Shown: positions 4,782 to 16,976 of the stretch, piece after piece | Position numbering within the stretch: the stretch's first letter is position 1 | Layout of the letters: each line of letters begins with the position of its first letter | From: a virus | Taxonomy: Duplodnaviria; Heunggongvirae; Uroviricota; Caudoviricetes | Reading direction: 5' to 3' (one strand) | Length of the DNA: 16,976 nt | IMG/VR virus record: IMGVR_UViG_2913112809_000005 | Made by a program: the position numbers and the translations under genes | Notes under the pieces: generated by a model | Seen by the model: only the letters and a program-made list of their open reading frames with translations | The model's database searches: none | Told to the model about the DNA's origin: nothing

Positions 4782-5874
4782 TCGTGACGTCTATTGCGGT
4801 GCATTCCGCCCACTCATGCGCCTGCAAAATACGTTTTGTAGGCATATTCAGCGCAACGTCATAGACGCCATCGACCTGTAACACTTTGATTATCTGGTTT
4901 GGCACAATGTCCTGCCCCAGATGTTTCTGCCGCTGTTGCGTCCAGAGGCTAATCGCTTTACGCGCCGCAGCCAGCGTTGTCTCCTGATCGGCGGTGGTAA
5001 ACAGCATTAGCTGCGCACGGATCTCATACGGCACTCGAAGAGCGCATTTCGCACTCACTTTGTCGGTCAGCGGACGTTTTTTCTCCTTGCTAACCTCCTG
5101 TTCAATTTGCGCGAGCAGTTCCACTCCCGGCAGACCATTCAGCGTTAGCGGGTAGATCTCCACGCAGCCTTCTGGCAATCCCTCGTCCGGCCCCAGTACT
5201 GAAACGTCAATAATCGACTGGCTAACAGAAAGCGTATGGAAGCGGTATGCGCCATAGCTGCCCGCATTACTAAAGCTTTCTGGTGCCAGTTGGATACGCT
5301 GGCGCAATGCGTCATCGCTCTCTTCACCGCAGCCGCCCGTTGACGCAGTCAGGTTGGTTACGTTGATGTCATAATGACCAATCCTGTCGACCAGTGCGCT
5401 AATTTGTGCAGGCTGCCAGCCGTTACCCTGTTCACCTGCTGCGAGGCTGGTGGCAGGAACGGCGATATGCAAACTCCTGGCCGGAAGCAGAACATCTTCA
5501 TCGGTGGCGAACATCACGCTATCAGAGGCACTGGCCCGCGTCCCCTGGGGAATCAGGATATTGCTGGTATACGCACTGACGACCGAAAACTGCAACGTCG
5601 TTTTTGCCGGTTGTGCAGGCAAACGGTGAACGCCCACCAGCTCCCCTAAATAATCCAGCATTGGCGCGCGGGAATACGCGACCAGGTTTTGTTTCGCCGC
5701 TTCCTGAATGGCGATGCGTACAAGGTTTTCACGATAGGCAAACAGGTCGATGAGCAACCGCTCAGCCTGTGCAGGATAGAGTTTTTTACCGCTGGCATCT
5801 TCGTATTGCGCAATCATCTCACTGGTAATTTGCGCTGGATCGCGGTCAATAAAATTGGGTTCGGCTATCGCCAT
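4759..5874 (-). CDS. Baseplate protein, gpJ family (Mu gp47-like, T4 gp6-like wedge)
   Basis: 371-aa ORF in the conserved position between gpW and gpI; size and order match Baseplate_J proteins; overlaps both neighbours in the operon. Confidence 0.8.
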   Translation of the reverse strand: MAIAEPNFIDRDPAQITSEMIAQYEDASGKKLYPAQAERLLIDLFAYRENLVRIAIQEAAKQNLVAYSRAPMLDYLGELVGVHRLPAQPAKTTLQFSVVSAYTSNILIPQGTRASASDSVMFATDEDVLLPARSLHIAVPATSLAAGEQGNGWQPAQISALVDRIGHYDINVTNLTASTGGCGEESDDALRQRIQLAPESFSNAGSYGAYRFHTLSVSQSIIDVSVLGPDEGLPEGCVEIYPLTLNGLPGVELLAQIEQEVSKEKKRPLTDKVSAKCALRVPYEIRAQLMLFTTADQETTLAAARKAISLWTQQRQKHLGQDIVPNQIIKVLQVDGVYDVALNMPTKRILQAHEWAECTAIDVTIAGVSDG

Positions 5875-6224
5875 AACACCTCCGTTGAGTTGATTACGCC
5901 GTCAGCGGCGCGCCATTGCACACGTAACGTCAGATGTTCACCGTCGATTACAGGTGTCACCTTCAGCAACCGACAGCGCGGTTCCCACTGGCGAATGGCT
6001 TCCACCGACTCCCGTACCACATGCGGGATTGCCCGCTCGATGGGGTAATCGATGTAGTGCCACAAATTGCTGCCAAACAGCGGTCTGTGGGGATCACTGC
6101 CGCGCGGTGTACGCAGAATGATGTGTATTGCCTGGTGAATATCATCCAGTCCGCAGACGTATTTTTCAGGCCGCTGCAAGGCCGGTTGCCAGTGCAGCGT
6201 TGAGGGTCGTGTTTTTGTGTTCAT
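5865..6224 (-). CDS. Baseplate protein, GPW/gp25 family
   Basis: 119-aa ORF of the size and position of P2 gpW / T4 gp25 / Mu gp46 homologues, between the spike and gpJ. Confidence 0.75.
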   Translation of the reverse strand: MNTKTRPSTLHWQPALQRPEKYVCGLDDIHQAIHIILRTPRGSDPHRPLFGSNLWHYIDYPIERAIPHVVRESVEAIRQWEPRCRLLKVTPVIDGEHLTLRVQWRAADGVINSTEVLWR

Positions 6225-6297
6225 GAGGGTATTTTCGCCCTGAACGGGCTGCGGGGATATTAAAGCGATTTAGAAAACTGATTGATTAAAAAGAGAA

Positions 6298-6317
6298 AAC
6301 CCGCCATCAGGCGGGTT
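6298..6317 (-). terminator. Intrinsic terminator/attenuator between gpV and gpW
   Basis: 8-bp GC-rich stem AACCCGCC-tgat-GGCGGGTT, 5 nt downstream (minus strand) of the gpV TGA stop at 6323-6325, followed on the minus strand by TTCTCTTTTTAATCAATCAGTTTTCT. Confidence 0.6.
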
Positions 6318-6322
6318 AAACG

Positions 6323-7024
6323 TCAGTGTGAATGGTGGTTGGAGTTGCCACCGCTGTCCTGCAATGCGCCGCTGGCCTGAACGTTGCCGATCACGTTGAC
6401 ATTGCCAGTTATTGTGGCGGCGTTACCGATGCCTCCACTTCCTGCCATCCCGCCAAGCCAGGTGAGTTTTTTCATTACCGTCACGTTACCAGTAAAGGTG
6501 CTCATGGGCGCATCTACCGTCACTGCTGCCGCTTTAACATCGACCTTAGTGGCGTCGATGCTGACATCGGTCGCTTTAACATCGACAGTATCGGAAGTCA
6601 CGATGACCTGTTGGGCTTTAATCTCAACGTTGGGCGATGTCAGGCTGGTACGGTCGATAACCTCAATCACGATTTTCTCGATACCGCCGTTAATCGTCAG
6701 CTGGTGCGTGCTGCGGTCATATTCAAACGCTGCGCCATCAGAAAACTGGACGTAACGTTTATCGCGCGAGGCCACAGGCGCGGTGTCAACCGTAGAATAA
6801 ACTGCGCCCAGCACCACGCCATCTTCACCGTTATTGTCCAGCAGAACTTCCACTTGCTCGCCCATATCCGGTAGCCAGTAGTCTTTATTGTCCTGGGAAT
6901 TGCGTTGAAGTACCGCAAGCCAGTTGCTCTTCAGATTGTCACACTCCGGAAGCGTGACTCGCACCCGAACGCTGGTTTCGTCAATATCGCTGATAATCCC
7001 CGTTTGCCGGGTTACTCCTTTCAT
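6323..7024 (-). CDS. Baseplate central spike, gpV family (Mu gp45-like), with His-rich C-terminal tip
   Basis: 233-aa ORF with an N-terminal OB-fold-like region and a C-terminal repetitive beta-helix-like segment (VDVKATDVSIDATKVDVKAAAVTVDA), ending ...GGNSNHHSH. AGGAGG RBS 7-12 nt upstream. Confidence 0.8.
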   Translation of the reverse strand: MKGVTRQTGIISDIDETSVRVRVTLPECDNLKSNWLAVLQRNSQDNKDYWLPDMGEQVEVLLDNNGEDGVVLGAVYSTVDTAPVASRDKRYVQFSDGAAFEYDRSTHQLTINGGIEKIVIEVIDRTSLTSPNVEIKAQQVIVTSDTVDVKATDVSIDATKVDVKAAAVTVDAPMSTFTGNVTVMKKLTWLGGMAGSGGIGNAATITGNVNVIGNVQASGALQDSGGNSNHHSH

Positions 7025-7033
7025 ATTTCCTCC

Positions 7034-8074
7034 TTACTGGCTGGTCGCTGGCCCGCGCGACACGTCGATTTCAGTGGTATAGCCGCTGCGCACAAAACTG
7101 TGAGTCGATTTATCAATCAGCCACTGACCGGAAAGCACGCCAAAATCGGTCAGTTCAATTTTATTGCCCGCCGTCAGATCCGGGCAGCCCATCATTGTGA
7201 GCGTTCCGGTTTGCTGATATTCGTTGTGGCTGTCGAGTGCAGCGTTGGCCTTTGCCTGTGCTGCGCCAACGTCCGTCGCCCGACTGTTCAGTTTTAGCGT
7301 GTCGGCACTGGTGCCGACTCCACGGGCAGACGGTTTTTGCTGGCTGTCGTGAGTGTAGATAACCAGTTCTTTTTTCTTACTATTTTGATGCTGTACGGTG
7401 GCGTTTTTGTAGATACGGTTAATGGTATCTTTGAAGGTGAAATGCGAAACGTCTTTGCGGTTGATCTTTTTAACCGACGCCAGGCAGCGCAGCGTGGGTA
7501 AATGCGAAAAAATCAGCTCTTTGGTGCTCACCTTTACTGCATAGCCATATTCGCAGGCCAGGCGCTTGAGAAATCCAACATCGGTTTCGCCGTACTGTGT
7601 CACCCGGTCAATCGTCAGCGGCTCGATTTTGCCCACCAGCTTTAGGCCGTGAGTTTGTGCGATACGGCTGGCGATAGCCGAAAGCGTCGTTTCTTCAAAA
7701 CCCTGGCTGTTACGGGTGCGCAGCGCCTGATTGACGGAAGTGGCGATGCCATCAATATTTACCGTAGAAGGTGGCGCTGAAATGTCGATTTTATCAATAA
7801 TATACTGACCACAATCGAGCAGCTTTTCCCCCTGATAACCCATATGCAGCGCCAGCGTATCGCCTTTGCCGGGATACCACTCTTTTATCCAGCGTCCATC
7901 AGTGTCATCCAGTGTAATTGCGATGGTATCTGACTCGTTTTTGATGCTGTCGTGGTAACTGATGCTGGTGACATAGGGTGTGATGTCATAAGTGATATCT
8001 TTATGCCCATACCAGAGGGTAAAAATGGGCGTGAGTGTGGCAAAGACGCCACCAGTTACGCTTATCTCAGCCAT
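7034..8074 (-). CDS. Baseplate hub protein, P2 gpD family (late control gene D protein; Mu gp44-like)
   Basis: 346-aa ORF of the size and position of gpD/gp27-like hub proteins, directly before the spike. Confidence 0.8.
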   Translation of the reverse strand: MAEISVTGGVFATLTPIFTLWYGHKDITYDITPYVTSISYHDSIKNESDTIAITLDDTDGRWIKEWYPGKGDTLALHMGYQGEKLLDCGQYIIDKIDISAPPSTVNIDGIATSVNQALRTRNSQGFEETTLSAIASRIAQTHGLKLVGKIEPLTIDRVTQYGETDVGFLKRLACEYGYAVKVSTKELIFSHLPTLRCLASVKKINRKDVSHFTFKDTINRIYKNATVQHQNSKKKELVIYTHDSQQKPSARGVGTSADTLKLNSRATDVGAAQAKANAALDSHNEYQQTGTLTMMGCPDLTAGNKIELTDFGVLSGQWLIDKSTHSFVRSGYTTEIDVSRGPATSQ

Positions 8075-8274
8075 GGTGGGATCTCCGATAAGGTTTTATT
8101 GACGGAAATGACCGGAATAATGAGCTGAATACCGGAAGGCAGCACCGGGTAAATGGCGACATGTGGATTGGCGGCGATTATGCGTTCATAAGCCAGCGCA
8201 TCACCGTAGTAATGCCATGCCAGATTATCCCAGCGTTCGCTGTCGGTGGTGATATGTTCAAGGTATCGCATCAC
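8062..8274 (-). CDS. Tail protein X (P2 gpX family, LysM-like)
   Basis: 70-aa ORF containing the conserved gpX motif (WD.LA..YYGD....E.II.ANP); ATGA-type overlap with the upstream gpU-like gene. Confidence 0.75.
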   Translation of the reverse strand: MMRYLEHITTDSERWDNLAWHYYGDALAYERIIAANPHVAIYPVLPSGIQLIIPVISVNKTLSEIPPWLR

Positions 8275-9224
8275 CAGCTCCTCGTAATGGTCGCGGCAGC
8301 AAACTGGCTCACTGTGGGAGTGGTTTGTTGTACCGTTGTTCGTGCCTGATCAACCAACGTTGCGGCTTTATCGAACGTCGCTTGGGCGATGCCGCTGGTA
8401 ATGTCGTCGAAAAGCGCCTGAGCATGGTCAACCAGCGTACTGGCGTCATTGGCGCAGTCCCGGATACCTGGCATGTTACCCAGTAAAGCTTTAATCTGCG
8501 CCGACAACGCTTTTGGGAGTCCTGCCAGCGTTTGCAGATCCGTTGGCTGTTTAAACAGGGTTTCGATGGCGTCGATTGTCTTTTTCAATGACGTAATTAT
8601 CTTTTCACACTTTTCTTTTAACGCTTTGGCCTCTTTAATCATTGCTTTCACTTTTGCCACCGTTTTTTTAATATCTTCAATGGCTTGTGTCAGTTCATCC
8701 AGCATCTCTTTGGCCTTACGCATACCTTCTTCAATGGCGTTTAATATCTGATCAAACCAGGACTCCACCATGTCGGGAAAATTGCTCGCCTTTTCCTCAA
8801 TGTTAGGCTCCTGGGTGGTAATCGCCGGAGGTAAAAGTGGATTTTTAGGATCGCCGGTGTACTCCTGGAGCGACATCGTTCCGTTTTGGGCAATCACATT
8901 GCCCCAGGGATCGGTGTGCTGGTGGGTGGCGGTTAGCTCTGTAATTACAAACCAGCCGCGATAATCGCCATTGCCAAATACCAGTGCCATCGCCTTGTGA
9001 GCAAGCATGGCTTCACGCAGTCGATTCAGCTCTGTTGTGGGCTGGCAAAACTGGCTGTGCAGGGAAAATTCCAGCGCCAGTATATCCAGCTTATCGCCAA
9101 TAAACTGCACGCCGGGCTTGCCTTCTATACGGGCATGTGTGGCGTAATCCACGCCCATTGTGCTTTTAAAGCCGTCCCAGAATGTGACAACCTTAAATTC
9201 AATCTCTCCTAAAACGGCATACAT
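8271..9224 (-). CDS. gpU-like tail protein with a roughly 175-aa C-terminal alpha-helical/coiled-coil extension
   Basis: 317-aa ORF. First about 140 aa follow the P2 gpU pattern (M..LG...F......F..........G.P..QF.G...D...L...L......L..L...........G.G...G.FVITEL). The remainder is Lys/Glu/Ala-rich with heptad-like periodicity (KAKEMLDELTQAIEDIKKTVAKVKAMIKEAKALKEKCEKI...). Stop/start overlaps the tape measure gene. Confidence 0.7.
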   Translation of the reverse strand: MYAVLGEIEFKVVTFWDGFKSTMGVDYATHARIEGKPGVQFIGDKLDILALEFSLHSQFCQPTTELNRLREAMLAHKAMALVFGNGDYRGWFVITELTATHQHTDPWGNVIAQNGTMSLQEYTGDPKNPLLPPAITTQEPNIEEKASNFPDMVESWFDQILNAIEEGMRKAKEMLDELTQAIEDIKKTVAKVKAMIKEAKALKEKCEKIITSLKKTIDAIETLFKQPTDLQTLAGLPKALSAQIKALLGNMPGIRDCANDASTLVDHAQALFDDITSGIAQATFDKAATLVDQARTTVQQTTPTVSQFAAATITRSW

Positions 9225-12665: not shown

Positions 12666-14095
12666 TAGCTATTGCTCTCCAGAGAGACTAAATATTCAGA
12701 AGTAATTTCAGTTTCAAACGTCAGACGTTCCAGCGGCGGCGGCGGGGTGAATTTATAGCTCAGCAATAAATGACCGGCGCTGAGTTCAGCCGGTGAATTT
12801 CGTGCCGGATCGTACCAGCACTCAAAGCCAAGCAGTGCGCCGTCGGCAATTAGTTTTCGGCCCCAGGTATTTACCGATTCGGTCAGTGCGTCAATAATTG
12901 CCTGATTAATAGGCATATCAATATACTGCTGACTGAAATAACGGATTGACTCATTGATTACATCGCCTGTCCGGCGGACGTTTTCAAAGTTACGCATATG
13001 GGTCACGGTAGGCCATGCCGCTGTGCGGTTACCCCACAAGCGCAGACCAGAACCGTAACTATTGAAAATAGTGGTAATGCCGTTTTCGTTGAGCTGATTC
13101 ACTTCGCTTTGTGGATCATCAATCATTGCGGAAAGCGAACGTTCAATACCGGTAATACCCTGAATTTCCTGGTTTGAGTTGCTCCACCAGAAACCTTTTT
13201 CGAGGTCTACTTTGGCACGTAGCCCGGCAGCGCGCGAAGAGAGTGGTTCGAGAACTTCCTGGTTAGTGATGCCATCGTAAACTTTGACGTGTGGGTAACA
13301 TAAACGCACACGATCAGAGCTGGTATTGAAGTTGATAGCCCCTTGCGAACCGCGTCCAGCCAATACCTGCTGGAATGTCGTCCCAATCGGAGCATCAATG
13401 TAGGTAATCGCACCGAGTTTTTCCGCTTGTGCAATCAGCTCAGTAGTTACTGATTTTTGCGTACAAAACACGGGAGCAAGCAGGATTTTGGCGTAGAAAC
13501 CGTACAGGTTATAGGTGTCCTGAAGGAGTTTCATCCCCGTGCGGTCGCCTGCGGTATTTAGGGCACCGATAATATCGGCTGCGGTGACCTTTGTAGGGTC
13601 GCACCAGGAATAATAGGCGCAAACTTTCGCTCCAGGAGGAATGTCGGCTCCTTTACGAGTGATTATGCCTGTTTGTTCATCTACGCTAAATGCTGTGGTG
13701 TTAAAGGTTGATGAATTTGATGAAGAGGGCTTTAGTACCACGTTACGCACATTGCGGTGAGCGAGCTTCGCCTGGTTGTTAGCATCAAAAGTGATACTCT
13801 CATTGCTGATGCTGGAGCTATGTTTTGCCGGATCCAGCACGTTAATCACCACCACCGTACCGGCACCGTGGTCATAAATCGCCTTCAGTGCCTGTGGGAT
13901 CGTAAAGTTAGCCAGAGTCGAGCCAAACTGCGCAGCATCGCTTTCAGAAAGACATAATGTTGGTTTATTTACCGGACCACAGGGGGCCGTACCGATTAAA
14001 GCGATGACGGCGGATTTTACCGCTTTAACCGGACGAGGGCCGGTTTCAATTTCAATGGTTTCTACACCGTGCAGGTAATTAGCTGCCATGTACAA
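12665..14095 (-). CDS. Contractile tail sheath protein
   Basis: 476-aa ORF directly upstream of the tube gene; size and position are typical of myovirus sheath proteins (P2 FI / Mu L class). Confidence 0.85.
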   Translation of the reverse strand: MYMAANYLHGVETIEIETGPRPVKAVKSAVIALIGTAPCGPVNKPTLCLSESDAAQFGSTLANFTIPQALKAIYDHGAGTVVVINVLDPAKHSSSISNESITFDANNQAKLAHRNVRNVVLKPSSSNSSTFNTTAFSVDEQTGIITRKGADIPPGAKVCAYYSWCDPTKVTAADIIGALNTAGDRTGMKLLQDTYNLYGFYAKILLAPVFCTQKSVTTELIAQAEKLGAITYIDAPIGTTFQQVLAGRGSQGAINFNTSSDRVRLCYPHVKVYDGITNQEVLEPLSSRAAGLRAKVDLEKGFWWSNSNQEIQGITGIERSLSAMIDDPQSEVNQLNENGITTIFNSYGSGLRLWGNRTAAWPTVTHMRNFENVRRTGDVINESIRYFSQQYIDMPINQAIIDALTESVNTWGRKLIADGALLGFECWYDPARNSPAELSAGHLLLSYKFTPPPPLERLTFETEITSEYLVSLESNS

Positions 14096-14276
14096 TTTCC
14101 TCTACGTTATTTTGTTCTTCCTGAGTGATGACAGGAGTCAGATGATTGCGGGCAATCATGGTTATGACCCACTCGTTGTCTTCTGGCAGATCAATTTCAC
14201 TGTTCGGCCACAATAAGATTTCTTGTCCGTCGGCAAGGGTGACGCCGCTTGCCGGGCCGTTGTAGATGTATTTCAT
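14079..14276 (-). CDS. Small conserved tail-region protein (Mu gp38-like position)
   Basis: 65-aa ORF, coupled by a 4-nt overlap to the upstream gene and overlapping the sheath start. Confidence 0.45.
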   Translation of the reverse strand: MKYIYNGPASGVTLADGQEILLWPNSEIDLPEDNEWVITMIARNHLTPVITQEEQNNVEEIVHGS

Positions 14277-14728
14277 TCAGTTTCCTCGTAATTAACTTCC
14301 GTAAGCAGGGGAAGATCCGTGCTTTCCTGTTCAGCGATAAACAGCGAGCTGGTCGCCATTTCCAGGATGTAGCGGCAGAAACCGCCGCTCTCACCCGTAT
14401 TAATTTCTTTTTCAAGCCAAAGCAGACGATCGCAATCAGGAAGCTGAAGGCCACCCAATGCTCTGCGTATGCGATCAAGAGCGTTTAACGCGTCACAATT
14501 TTTGCCAACAATAACGGTGGCGGTTAAGCGGAGTATTTGCTGTTGCACGATGGCATCACTGCTTTCGGGCGTGGCAAAGAAAGAACCGCTATAATTAATA
14601 ATCACTGCAACTTGCTGTGTCTGTGGAATATATTTCTGGGCATCCGTAGCTGAAATAAATACGTCCATTTCGGGGTTGTGTTCACGTAATCTGGTCACAA
14701 CAGAATTCATTACAGATAAAATTTCCAT
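14273..14728 (-). CDS. Putative tail completion/terminator-type protein (Mu gp37 / DUF1834-like); first gene of the tail operon
   Basis: 151-aa ORF with an AGG-containing RBS upstream; position and N-terminal pattern (ME.L..M...VV.RL) recall Mu gp37-family proteins. Functional call is tentative. Confidence 0.45.
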   Translation of the reverse strand: MEILSVMNSVVTRLREHNPEMDVFISATDAQKYIPQTQQVAVIINYSGSFFATPESSDAIVQQQILRLTATVIVGKNCDALNALDRIRRALGGLQLPDCDRLLWLEKEINTGESGGFCRYILEMATSSLFIAEQESTDLPLLTEVNYEETE

Positions 14729-14842
14729 ATGGGTTGTACCTTAATTACCGCTCACTTCGTTATCGTTGAAATATATTCTGAAGCAGTGAAGGTGAAGAAT
14801 CTTTTAATGTAATTTAGAGAAAAAATTGAATGGCTATAAAAA

Positions 14843-14870
14843 ATCCCCACACTTACGTAAAGGTGGGGAT
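14843..14870 (-). terminator. Intrinsic terminator after the lysis cassette (potentially bidirectional)
   Basis: 8-bp stem ATCCCCAC...GTGGGGAT with an internally palindromic loop, beginning 4 nt after the TAA stop at 14875-14877; followed on the minus strand by TTTTTATAGCC and on the plus strand by GTATTTAATA. Confidence 0.7.
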
Positions 14871-14874
14871 GTAT

Positions 14875-15189
14875 TTAATAGCTGCCACGTTGTAACAGCT
14901 CGATTTTGCTATATAAGGCATCCAGCTTTGCTTCTAATACTGCTTGCCCACGAAGATAATCTTCTCTGCGGACATAATGCAGCGGAAGCTCGGCACGAAA
15001 TTCAAGAAACTCTCTTTCCAGTTTCGACCAACTTGTTTCTGATTCCCTGCGGGCATTTTCCAGAGACTCAAAACGCTCATTAAGTCGTTTTTCAATTTGC
15101 GCTAACAGCAGTTTTCCGGCAGCAAACATTAATCCAACGAAGGAAAGCATAAGGGAGATCACTTCCCAAAAATCGATACTGAGTTTCAT
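14875..15189 (-). CDS. Membrane-anchored coiled-coil protein, candidate spanin-like/lysis accessory protein
   Basis: 104-aa ORF with one N-terminal hydrophobic helix (FWEVISLMLSFVGLMFAAGKLLL) followed by a charged helical region; GAGGGG RBS; directly downstream of the lysin gene. Confidence 0.45.
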   Translation of the reverse strand: MKLSIDFWEVISLMLSFVGLMFAAGKLLLAQIEKRLNERFESLENARRESETSWSKLEREFLEFRAELPLHYVRREDYLRGQAVLEAKLDALYSKIELLQRGSY

Positions 15190-15201
15190 CGGCCCCTCTG
15201 A

Positions 15202-15807
15202 TTAGTGAAGACAGCTTGCCTGTCCCCAGAGTAAATAGCGGGCGGCGTGTAGATAGAGGATCATCTTTGGATAGCGACGATTTTCTCGCCAGTTAGCAGC
15301 GCTGCGCCCGGCGTTGACTCGCTCGACATGACCAAACCAGCTAGTGGCATCTAACCCTTTGGATGCAGCTAGTTTTTTATCCCGGTTAACCCACCCCTGA
15401 CCGCCGTTATAGGCGCTTAGGGTAAACGCCATACGCTGACAGTCATTTTTCGCAGAGATGTTTTTCCACAAATGCTGGTCATATTGCACCAGCGCGCGAA
15501 TCGCCCAGGTTGGGTTATACGGTTTGTTTTCACGCAATTGTGGATACAACTGGCTTATCCATGTCGCTGTAGCAGGCATAAATTGCGCCATACCTTGTGC
15601 GCCAACGGGGGAACGTACCATTGGCTGCCAGGCGGACTCCAGGTGTAATTGCCCGGCAAAGTCGGCCACTGGGGCATTCAGCCCCCAGACTTCTCGAGCG
15701 GTACGAATTAGTTCGTTTCGCCATGCCAGAGAGGCTCGCGGCGGTTCAGAGGCGTTAAGCGGGAAAAGAACGAAAATAATCATAGACGCGATATATTTCA
15801 GCCACAT
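15202..15807 (-). CDS. Lytic transglycosylase (SLT domain) lysin with N-terminal signal/SAR-like hydrophobic leader
   Basis: SLT catalytic motifs LHLESAWQP and AQGMAQFMP. Best start is ATG at 15807 (MWLKYIASMIIFVLFPLNA...), 2 nt after the stop of the upstream membrane-protein gene; the longer ORF to 15885 would overlap that gene by 76 nt. Confidence 0.7.
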   Translation of the reverse strand: MWLKYIASMIIFVLFPLNASEPPRASLAWRNELIRTAREVWGLNAPVADFAGQLHLESAWQPMVRSPVGAQGMAQFMPATATWISQLYPQLRENKPYNPTWAIRALVQYDQHLWKNISAKNDCQRMAFTLSAYNGGQGWVNRDKKLAASKGLDATSWFGHVERVNAGRSAANWRENRRYPKMILYLHAARYLLWGQASCLH

Positions 15808-15809
15808 CA

Positions 15810-16097
15810 CTATAGCCCTAAGGCGACGGAAAGACAGACGGCGGCAACGATGATGGCGCGGCGAATCATTGCCGCCGCGCAGCAACGCGGTTCCTTCCAG
15901 GGGCTAAAAGAGTCAGGCCGTGCCCAGGGGAACAAACTGCGATCGAGCCAGTATCCCAGCACCGCGGAAAGCGAAACCAGGCTTAGTTTATAAATGACGA
16001 CCGGGATCTGTGCTGAAGAGGTCCAGCCGATCACGACAAACAGCGCGACGGAAGCGACCAGCCAGCCGGAAAGCCGGGGAAAAGTGACTTTTTTCAT
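15810..16097 (-). CDS. Small membrane protein with 2-3 transmembrane segments, holin candidate
   Basis: 95-aa ORF with AGGAG RBS 8 nt upstream of the ATG; hydrophobic segments LVASVALFVVIGW, IPVVIYKLSLVSLSAVLGYWL and AIIVAAVCLSVALGL; first gene of the lysis cassette, directly before the lysin. Confidence 0.5.
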   Translation of the reverse strand: MKKVTFPRLSGWLVASVALFVVIGWTSSAQIPVVIYKLSLVSLSAVLGYWLDRSLFPWARPDSFSPWKEPRCCAAAMIRRAIIVAAVCLSVALGL

Positions 16098-16393
16098 ACG
16101 ATATCTCCTGATAAGTGAGCGTTTAGTGTCGTCAGAACCCTCCAGTGAAGAATGAAAAAAGCTTTAATAAATAAGTTTAAAAAATAGATTCTCTATAAAT
16201 GAACAAGCCCGCTAATAAATCGACTCATCAATTAAAGAGCAAAAGGTGACCTGGCGAATAAGCGCGTCATTATGCAGGGGAAAGATGATGGTGGATCGTA
16301 GGAATAGTCTATAGTTATTTGATTTTTAAAGTTTGTTTAAGAAAGTCAGCTACTGTGAGGGAAACGATCTTTTAACACTACAGGTAAAAATAA

Positions 16394-16413
16394 TACTGTA
16401 TACGTATACAGTA
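16394..16413. promoter_or_regulatory. LexA (SOS) box, near consensus
   Basis: TACTGTATACGTATACAGTA, a perfect CTGT-N8-ACAG palindrome matching the gammaproteobacterial LexA consensus TACTGTATATATATACAGTA at 18 of 20 positions. Lies in the divergent intergenic region; a TTGACA hexamer sits 21 bp to its right (16435-16440) and a TATTAT hexamer overlaps its left end on the minus strand. Confidence 0.7.
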
Positions 16414-16634
16414 TAGTGTAAAATGATACTCCTGTTGACAAGAAACATAATGCAAACAATATATTTATTTCGTGAATTTATGGCGTTCATTAATACTAAA
16501 AATTTATATTTTGGGTGATTATTTATTTGTTTGTTGAATGTATTGAGTAGCAGTAATGACAACTGCTTAGCGTATATCCGTGGTTTTACACGCATCGGGT
16601 CTTATTCAGGATGCAAGATATATGGAGATGAAAA

Positions 16635-16976
16635 ATGATACGAAAATCAAAAGAGATGGCCCGGACACCGGAGATTATTAACGACCTGGCTTTTCATGCA
16701 TCGCAAGTTCTGATTGAAAGCATCATTCTCGACAGTTCATCGGCAGAAAATGTGGGTTTTGCCATTGCCGACCGAATGATGCGTAACTGGGGCGGACAAA
16801 GCATCTATTTCCCTAAGGGGATCTCCGGACGAGCATCGGAGCGTGACTACCAAATCTATAGCGAGTGCGATGGGCGCAACTACGCTGAATTAGCGAAGAA
16901 ATATAATCTGACGCTGCAATGGATTTATAAGATAGTCAAACGTGTACATACGGAGAAGCAGCAGAGTCGTATGTAG
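16635..16976 (+). CDS. Mor/C-family transcription activator (phage Mu middle/late activator family)
   Basis: 113-aa ORF with GGAG RBS. C-terminal region (GGQSIYFPKG...ERDYQIY.ECDGRNYAELAKKYNLTLQWIYKIVKRV) closely parallels the Mu Mor/C DNA-binding region (GGGQVYIPRG...RDLRIWNDFNGRNVSELTTRYGVTFNTVYKAIRRM). Complete ORF ending with TAG at the window edge. Confidence 0.7.
   Translation: MIRKSKEMARTPEIINDLAFHASQVLIESIILDSSSAENVGFAIADRMMRNWGGQSIYFPKGISGRASERDYQIYSECDGRNYAELAKKYNLTLQWIYKIVKRVHTEKQQSRM

Follow-up and report, generated by a model that had tools for sequence, protein, structure and literature searches.

Do the lysis and tail genes of this locus share one transcript, or does the 146-nt spacer between them hold the end of one transcription unit and the start of the next? 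The DNA analysed (hereafter the window) is the whole 16,976-nt stretch of the viral record IMGVR_UViG_2913112809_000005. In its list of open reading frames all cluster genes lie on the minus strand, with the exception of a divergent mor gene. A first-pass annotation, made from the sequence alone, had proposed separate units for lysis and tail. Comparison of related loci and phages leads me to consider separate transcription units the likely best reading for most alleles of this junction, and the units probably answer to a single activator of the Mor family, encoded at the edge of the island.

Gene content of the island

The genes and spacers on which the argument depends are these:

16635-16976, plus strand: Mor-family activator gene, mor (Pfam Mor PF08765, E = 2.3e-37; PHROG 532, "late transcriptional activator")
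537 bp: spacer between mor and the holin gene
16097-15810, minus strand: holin gene (Pfam Holin_2-3)
15807-15202, minus strand: SLT transglycosylase gene, product with a signal-like N-terminus (Pfam SLT)
15189-14875, minus strand: ORF of 104 aa, with an N-terminal transmembrane segment and a coiled coil (PHROG 462)
146 nt: spacer between the 104-aa gene and gp37, with a hairpin and a promoter-like footprint
14273-14728, minus strand: gp37, first gene of tail unit 1 (Pfam PF09646, E = 1.5e-35)
Tail unit 1, minus strand, in order: gp37, 65-aa protein, sheath, tube, chaperone, tape measure and onward to baseplate V (7024-6323)
6224-5865, minus strand: baseplate gene W

Judged by its gene content, the island is tail-only and tailocin-like. 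The sheath, tube and chaperone all have Pfam matches in the window, tail unit 1 is followed by baseplate and fibre genes, and no head, packaging, replication or integration genes were found in the island. The RefSeq annotation of the copy in E. coli S10 gives the same picture, running from Mor, holin, SLT, membrane protein and gp37 through to tail fibre and assembly genes. In E. coli the island sits between lysC and yjbD/rluF and is present in 196 of 5,426 complete genomes (about 3.6%), at about 97.5% identity. Salmonella has it at the same chromosomal site (STM4198-STM4219, about 76% identity), Phytobacter also carries it, and mor is conserved in every related locus that extends that far. A literature search, limited to one searchable library, found no report of this island's transcription, particle production or killing. 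A paper on a "tailocin" of ST131 was set aside, as it concerns another cluster, which is P2/R2-like.

The gene that precedes the spacer had been called the last lysis gene, and this name does not hold. A Pfam search with the 104-aa ORF gave no match, and by tblastn its product is 45-54% identical to BcepMu gp25 and to the "putative membrane protein" of Klebsiella phage KP12 and E. coli phage PhiKM. This similarity makes the 104-aa protein a BcepMu gp25 homologue, and gp25 is an inner-membrane protein without a recognised lysis role. The Rz/Rz1 pair is absent from the island, spanins being present in BcepMu, KP12 and PhiKM, and a search of the 104-aa gene for an embedded o-spanin (an ORF with a lipobox, encoding an Rz1-like lipoprotein) found none. 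The lysis cassette is incomplete, with holin and SLT present and spanins missing, and I refer below to the lysis-side genes. A 32-aa ORF within the spacer (14850-14752) was dropped; its start lies within the hairpin, which some alleles lack.

A terminator-like hairpin behind the lysis-side genes

The first element in the spacer is the hairpin:

14837-14870, minus strand: intrinsic-terminator-like hairpin and U6 (stem 14870-14863/14850-14843; U run 14843-14838)

The hairpin and U-tract that had been reported at 14843-14870, after the last gene of the lysis side, were recovered at exactly those coordinates, starting 5 nt past the TAA (14877-14875) of ORF 15189-14875. The 5' arm (14870-14863) is AUCCCCAC and the 3' arm (14850-14843) is GUGGGGAU, with UUUUUUAU directly after the 3' arm. 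Three extra inner pairs give a G+C-rich stem of 8+3 bp. Folded within 61 nt of context, the hairpin reaches -20.7 kcal/mol (z = -5.4), and none of 200 dinucleotide shuffles was as good; folded in isolation it gives -14.9 to -15.5 kcal/mol.

A scan with consensus promoters and terminators, whose counts were at chance level, listed neither this hairpin nor the promoter described below, and it missed the hairpin because of the bulge and the long apical region. The scan was replaced by folding, by a shuffle-controlled search for hairpins with T-tracts and by comparative analysis. Over both strands the window has four stable hairpins with a T-tract, and dinucleotide shuffles yield 3.1 +/- 1.9. The class is thus not enriched, and the sequence by itself is weak evidence for a terminator. 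Two of the four candidates lie on the coding strand in the only two sizeable intergenic gaps of the tail/lysis run (146 and 98 nt). This placement in the gaps, together with conservation and covariation, lifts the hairpin above chance. An Rfam search of 14000-16976 returned no credible family, its sole match being RsaJ at E = 0.55, far below threshold.

Conservation and loss of the hairpin

I compared 21 distinct alleles of the junction, from E. coli, an E. albertii-like source, Salmonella, Phytobacter massiliensis and metagenome or IMG/VR contigs. A profile search of genome contigs with the gp37 alignment gave nothing, a contig search with the 104-aa protein gave a single locus, that of Phytobacter, and the other loci came from viral and metagenome scans. 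The hairpin and T-tract stand at the same position in 19 of the 21 alleles, within flanking non-coding DNA that has diverged. Position, stem and U-tract are kept in five lineages, namely the E. coli type, the Salmonella type, the L014/L018 type, L031 and Phytobacter. When the 12 distinct hairpins were aligned, 84.7% of cells held standard pairs, as against 44-57% when the partners were slid by 1-3 columns. Pair 10-25 is G-C in eight hairpins and A-U in four, and pair 13-22 is G-C in six, U-G in three and C-G in one. Changes thus fall on both sides at two pairs, and the T-tract is conserved. I have moderate confidence that these patterns reflect pairing maintained by compensatory change among few independent lineages.

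The commonest E. coli allele (136 genomes) has a perfect 12-bp stem of -24.3 kcal/mol, in which two substitutions turn one mismatch and one wobble into Watson-Crick pairs. The hairpin is present in 189 of the 196 complete E. coli genomes that bear the island, and in the other seven a clean indel of 43 bp, with AT on its flanks, accounts for its absence. Strain A10 (NZ_CP028764.1) is an example of a natural strain without the hairpin. It is also missing from the fetched loci L004, L005, L010 and L028, where the cluster genes look intact. Hairpin-less alleles thus occur in apparently intact clusters, so termination here is not essential and the putative terminator is dispensable in some natural alleles.

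The hairpin was also considered as a dispersed repeat, and this was ruled out: among the 5,426 complete E. coli genomes its sequence occurs at this locus only. ERIC-like elements have twice inserted beside the hairpin (in L007 and in Phytobacter) and have not destroyed it.

A promoter-like footprint upstream of gp37

The remainder of the spacer resolves into a series of conserved and variable elements:

14823-14800, minus strand: conserved 24-nt block, TTTTCTCTAAATTACATTAAAAGA
14817-14802, minus strand: 16-bp imperfect dyad box, CTAAA-N4-ATTAAAA, a predicted site for a Mor/C-family activator at about -49 to -34
14801-14800, minus strand: two bases, one column invariant, only two variants (GA, GC) in 21 alleles
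14799-14781, minus strand: spacer, none of 19 columns invariant, length fixed (no indel) in 21 alleles
14780-14775, minus strand: -10-like hexamer CAGAAT, CA[GTA][AT]AT in 21 of 21 alleles
14767-14755, minus strand: start-region block, AACGATAACGAAG, 8 of 13 columns invariant in 21 alleles
14729-14768, minus strand: predicted transcript start (about 14768-14766, placed from the -10) and 5' UTR

The tail gene had been said to start 115 nt beyond the hairpin with its own ribosome-binding site and a motif-bearing region upstream, and each of these points was borne out. The ATG of gp37 lies at 14728, which is 115 nt away from 14843; an AAGG Shine-Dalgarno sequence lies at 14741-14738, 9 nt 5' of the ATG; and the motif corresponds to the 24-nt block, which begins 14 nt past the U tract and is unique in the window at up to three mismatches. 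Within the block, the box (YTAAA-N4-ATTAAAA across the alleles) has 12 of its 16 columns invariant in the 21 alleles, and it varies only in the N4 centre. The distance from box to -10 is exactly 21 nt in all alleles, and 19 of those nucleotides are variable. Four of the six columns of the -10 hexamer are invariant, including positions 2 and 6. It is a weak -10 (4/6 match), and there is no usable -35, the hexamers 16-18 nt upstream matching TTGACA at no more than two of six positions. Taking the hexamer as -12 to -7 places the centre of the dyad, with its TAAA/TTAA arms, near -42 from the predicted start. A conserved box and a conserved -10, joined by a spacer whose length is fixed and whose sequence is free, look like a promoter with an upstream activator site.

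A 9-mer, ATTCTTCAC, common to the upstream regions of the holin gene and gp37, was rejected as a motif; it occurs at chance frequency and is unconserved in Salmonella. A search of the leaders for an RfaH ops element, which would have offered a way to one long transcript, found none.

Recurrence of the pattern in the island and in phages

Similar arrangements were found at two further places in the window:

6231-6317, minus strand: second module, upstream of W, with a hairpin (6316-6299) and T-tract, box CTAAATCGCTTTAATA (6273-6258), 21 nt and GAAAAT (6236-6231)
16167-16152, minus strand: degenerate box on the lysis side, TTAAAGCTTTTTTCAT, followed by 21 nt and -10-like GACACT (16130-16125)

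The hairpin upstream of W folds at -15.3 kcal/mol (z = -3.6), the -10-like GAAAAT ends 6 nt before the W ATG, and the module is conserved in 11 distinct alleles. The composite pattern of box, spacing and -10 matches the window at 14775-14817 and 6231-6273 only, against 0.01 matches expected, a statistic that is partly circular since these two sites supplied the box pattern. In 30 related loci (up to 35 kb) it finds homologous sites only.

The phages provide the independent test. The pattern was relaxed at one position (YTAAA to YTAAM) to take in the phage holin site, and in PhiKM (34.7 kb) the relaxed pattern occurs at exactly three sites, all on the coding strand, against 0.01 expected. One is upstream of the holin gene, one lies between Mup31/G and the head protease/scaffold gene, in a gap of 215 nt, and one precedes the W-like baseplate gene; the head-protease and W-like sites are matched by the island pattern even before relaxation. 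In KP12 the pattern precedes the holin gene. Furthermore, the box of the PhiKM head operon, CTAAAGCAGATTAAAA, is identical to that of several island alleles, and when the PhiKM head-protease promoter is aligned with that of the island, the two stay in register past the -10 and on into the leader (5' UTR). A hairpin with a U-tract lies between G and the head-operon promoter in PhiKM. The dyad at the PhiKM W promoter is perfect (TTAAA-CGCC-TTTAA), whereas that of the island gp37 promoter is imperfect.

For the island holin gene, I infer the positions of box and -10 by aligning its upstream region, which holds a conserved block, with the holin promoters of the phages. Two other conserved blocks between the LexA box described below and the holin gene do not fit the box/-10 pattern in either orientation.

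A candidate activator and its possible control

The Mor-family gene is the sole regulator gene in the island, and its product shares 44% identity with PhiKM's C-like late activator. I propose that this protein activates the promoters of gp37, W and, through a degenerate box, holin; the link between Mor and the box is drawn because of the analogy with Mu and the co-occurrence of the two. A shared activator is likely because the same type of box stands at the tail, W and holin promoters, as Mu C serves Plys, PI and PP.

The activator may in turn be under SOS control:

16394-16413, between mor and the holin gene: LexA (SOS) box, TACTGTATACGTATACAGTA, 18/20 match to TACTG(TA)5CAGTA

The LexA box is unique in the window, with 0 expected by chance, and its CTGT-N8-ACAG is conserved in every locus that includes the mor-holin spacer. 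On the minus strand a conserved candidate promoter (TTTACA-16-TACAGT) has its -10 overlapped by the box, and plus-strand candidate promoters that face mor lie right beside the box. LexA cleavage on DNA damage would thus be the likely trigger for the Mor-family activator and, through it, for the three late units.

These results bear unevenly on what the first-pass annotation had concluded. Its separation of lysis from tail units agrees with the conserved hairpin, the promoter footprint and the ribosome-binding site, but the tail genes are themselves split by the second module, so that a division into two is too simple. Its suggestion that lysis and tail could be expressed at different levels or times probably holds for level; independent timing is unlikely, since the same type of box is found at gp37, W and (degenerate) holin.

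Alternative readings of the spacer

A single long transcript could run from one or more promoters upstream of the holin gene through the tail genes, in which case the hairpin would be a leaky attenuator or a stabiliser in 3'-end formation or processing and the conserved block some other signal, whether for a nucleoid protein or for translation. Natural hairpin-less alleles in intact clusters speak for such a transcript, the missing -35 and weak -10 agree with it, and it needs no ops/RfaH-type or other antitermination signal, none having been found. It is at odds, however, with the recurrence of box, 21-nt spacing and -10 before W and before three late operons of PhiKM without any other match in that phage. 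It also fits poorly with the position of the homologous block in the phages, where it stands before the opening gene of a head operon that follows a 215-nt gap, and with a hairpin whose pairing and U-tract are kept by compensatory change. I regard a single transcript as unlikely. Rather less likely still is a hairpin that arose as a chance palindrome or small mobile repeat with no role in transcription, and I would give this very little credence. Its sequence is confined to one locus in the complete E. coli genomes, on the coding strand and 5 nt past a stop codon, and it persists in five lineages with diverged flanks, covariation and an invariant T-tract. Against these stand the chance frequency of the class in the window, the clean presence/absence polymorphism of 43 bp flanked by AT and the two ERIC-like insertions at or beside the hairpin.

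The promoter might also be real and Mor-independent, either a weak constitutive sigma-70 promoter or one served by another factor, with Mor acting elsewhere. The lack of a clean box at the island holin promoter speaks for this, but Mor/C-dependent promoters are defined by just such a layout, in which a -35 is missing and an invariant dyad occupies about -49 to -34. Moreover, the only regulator of the island is of the Mor family, and the same box is used by phages whose activator is 44% identical, all of which makes a Mor-independent promoter improbable, more so than a single transcript. Separate units, each under a Mor-activated promoter, remain the preferred reading.

Proposed origin and mechanism

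The spacer is probably a late-operon boundary of the Mu/BcepMu type within a tail-only island, in which a Mor-activated promoter follows a terminator. I infer termination, transcript start, Mor dependence and LexA control from sequence elements. In BcepMu, KP12 and PhiKM, gp25 comes after Rz/Rz1 and overlaps gp26/TerS, the small terminase gene, and the island junction after the gp25 homologue is therefore a deletion joint. The simplest history starts from an ancestor in which a terminator stood between a lysis/packaging operon and a head/tail operon that had a late promoter to itself. Deletion of gp26-G and of I-J would have left the terminator/promoter pair between gp25 and gp37, and a Bcepmuvirus-like prophage that lost its packaging and head genes in this manner would have become a tailocin-like island with the boundary retained. 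The gp37 promoter would be the counterpart of the phage head-operon promoter (Mu PI-type), now fused to gp37.

In such an island, lysis-side transcripts (holin, SLT transglycosylase and gp25-like protein) would end at the hairpin and U6. A dimer of the Mor-family protein would bind the 16-bp dyad near -42 and enable sigma-70 RNA polymerase at a promoter with the -10 CAGAAT and without a -35. Transcription would begin near 14768, giving a leader of about 40 nt with AAGG before gp37. The second terminator/promoter module, before W, would split the tail genes and so produce three units under one activator, and the SOS response would probably release the activator through the conserved LexA box adjoining mor. 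Separate units would then set the relative amounts of the gene sets and would not answer to independent signals.

A more elaborate and doubtful version would have one activator, three promoters of graded quality and the terminator alleles tune the balance or timing of tail and lysis, as a minimal SOS-to-Mor cascade. If it were true, the clean dyads at both tail promoters and the split, degenerate box on the lysis side would take on meaning: the lysis promoter would fire later or need more activator, which would amount to a built-in delay from assembly to lysis. The terminator alleles (perfect 12-bp, bulged and absent) would set how far the lysis unit spills into the tail genes, and the mRNA of the baseplate unit would be leaderless, starting at W.

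Comparison with known systems

Like the Rho-independent terminators of Enterobacteriaceae, the island hairpin has a G+C-rich stem of at least eight pairs with six U next to it, just 3' of a stop codon. It differs from them in the bulged stem and long apical region of the window allele, and, unlike canonical terminators, its alleles range from a perfect 12-bp stem to total absence.

The late promoters of Mu have a -10 and no -35 and are activated by C through a 16-bp imperfect dyad centred at -43.5 (PMC2582627). The Mor dyad in Mu Pm spans -51 to -36 (PMC4287176), and C acts at differing steps of initiation at different Mu late promoters (PMC4461284). The island resembles Mu in having several late operons with their own promoters, in the -10 without a -35, in a 16-bp imperfect dyad predicted to overlap the -35 region, and in a small candidate activator of the Mor/C family encoded by the same element. 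The centre of the dyad is also close, at -43.5 in Mu and about -42 in the island, the latter counted from the predicted start. However, the island box is A/T-rich (YTAAA-N4-WTTAAWA) and is not a Mu C or Mor site. The island has a single Mor/C-family gene and so no two-step cascade from Mor to C, it lacks head, replication and transposition genes, and its second tail promoter lies before the W-like gene, whereas that of Mu lies before P.

The likeness to Bcepmuvirus (BcepMu, PhiKM and KP12) includes homologous holin, SLT endolysin, gp25, gp37, sheath and tube, the box, spacing and -10 before the holin, head-protease and W-like genes, and a hairpin and U-tract ahead of the promoter of the head operon. 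The phage terminator/promoter pair lies between Mup31/G and the head protease, whereas that of the island lies between gp25 and gp37, and the island is without gp26-G, I-J and Rz/Rz1. PhiKM has no terminator before its W promoter, whereas the island has one.

With the R-type pyocins (such as P. aeruginosa R2, regulated by PrtR/PrtN) and other tailocin clusters the island shares a chromosomal tail-only cluster with a lysis cassette, a dedicated activator and, probably, induction by DNA damage. Its tail is Mu/BcepMu-like and not P2-like, its activator is of the Mor/C family and not PrtN, and in place of the PrtR repressor there is probably a direct LexA box.

Conceptually, then, the boundary is nothing new: it is the ordinary Mu-style late organisation, inherited from an ancestral phage and kept after the loss of the head. 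What the analysis adds is a testable regulatory map of a widespread and little-studied island: three promoters, two terminators and a LexA box, together with a single Mor-family activator. A late-promoter box for Bcepmuvirus phages of E. coli and Klebsiella has been defined as well, and the native starts and stops of the units should be useful for expressing or engineering tail particles.

Candidate SOS control and conserved spacer sequences

The spacer between the Mor-family activator gene and the holin gene contains these conserved sequences:

16394-16413: LexA box close to the consensus, TACTGTATACGTATACAGTA
16310-16375, minus strand: blocks AAAAAGATCGTTTCCCTCACAG and TTTCTTAAACAAACTTTAAAAATCAA, both strongly conserved, in the stretch from the LexA box to the holin promoter

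The LexA box is kept in all related loci, Phytobacter included, and overlaps candidate divergent promoters. Its presence suggests that the island is under direct SOS control. Block TTTCTTAAACAAACTTTAAAAATCAA resembles the activator box found upstream of gp37 and W, but its centre is 5 nt, and I found no -10 at the right distance from it.

Start of the baseplate gene W

W lacks a Shine-Dalgarno sequence, and in the island (6224-6236 of the window, minus strand) and phage PhiKM (L035 17260-17274) alike its ATG lies just 6 nt past the end of the conserved -10-like hexamer. Taken together, these two features suggest that W may be translated from a leaderless mRNA.

Probable operon boundaries and predicted gp37 leaders in relatives

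Salmonella alleles carry the O-antigen glucosylation operon gtrABC inserted exactly between the post-V terminator and the box-bearing W promoter (4986-9027 of the Salmonella locus L002), which fits the V/W gap being a permissive boundary between operons. ERIC-like repeat elements adjoin the terminator hairpin that precedes gp37 in one E. coli-type allele (L007 2100-2240) and in Phytobacter massiliensis (L023 6315-6390); these insertions are independent of each other, and despite them the hairpin and its T-tract are still intact in both.

The predicted gp37 5' leader contains a short stem-loop (e.g. GAGAGAATATTATCTCTC) in Salmonella-type, L014/L018-type and Phytobacter alleles, and this is absent from E. 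coli-type alleles:

L002 16740-16790: gp37-leader stem-loop
L014 5455-5490: gp37-leader stem-loop
L023 6487-6520: gp37-leader stem-loop

In one IMG/VR "viral" contig, L016, positions 1-130 hold a T7 promoter, a lac operator and a ribosome-binding site of the pET type, joined exactly at the ATG of gp37 in a Salmonella-type cluster; the contig is a cloned expression construct, not a natural locus.

Lysis-side gene content

The plus strand at 15340-15381, within the SLT gene and antisense to it, carries a hairpin that is stable at -16.4 kcal/mol and is followed by TTTTTTAT; it falls within the number expected by chance and is probably meaningless. The lysis-side unit encodes a holin along with an SLT transglycosylase of the secreted type, but it has no Rz/Rz1 spanin pair (14875-15807), and a search for an embedded lipobox ORF gave none. 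Unlike the island, the related phages BcepMu, KP12 and PhiKM have an Rz/Rz1 pair, located after the endolysin gene and before the gp25-like one.
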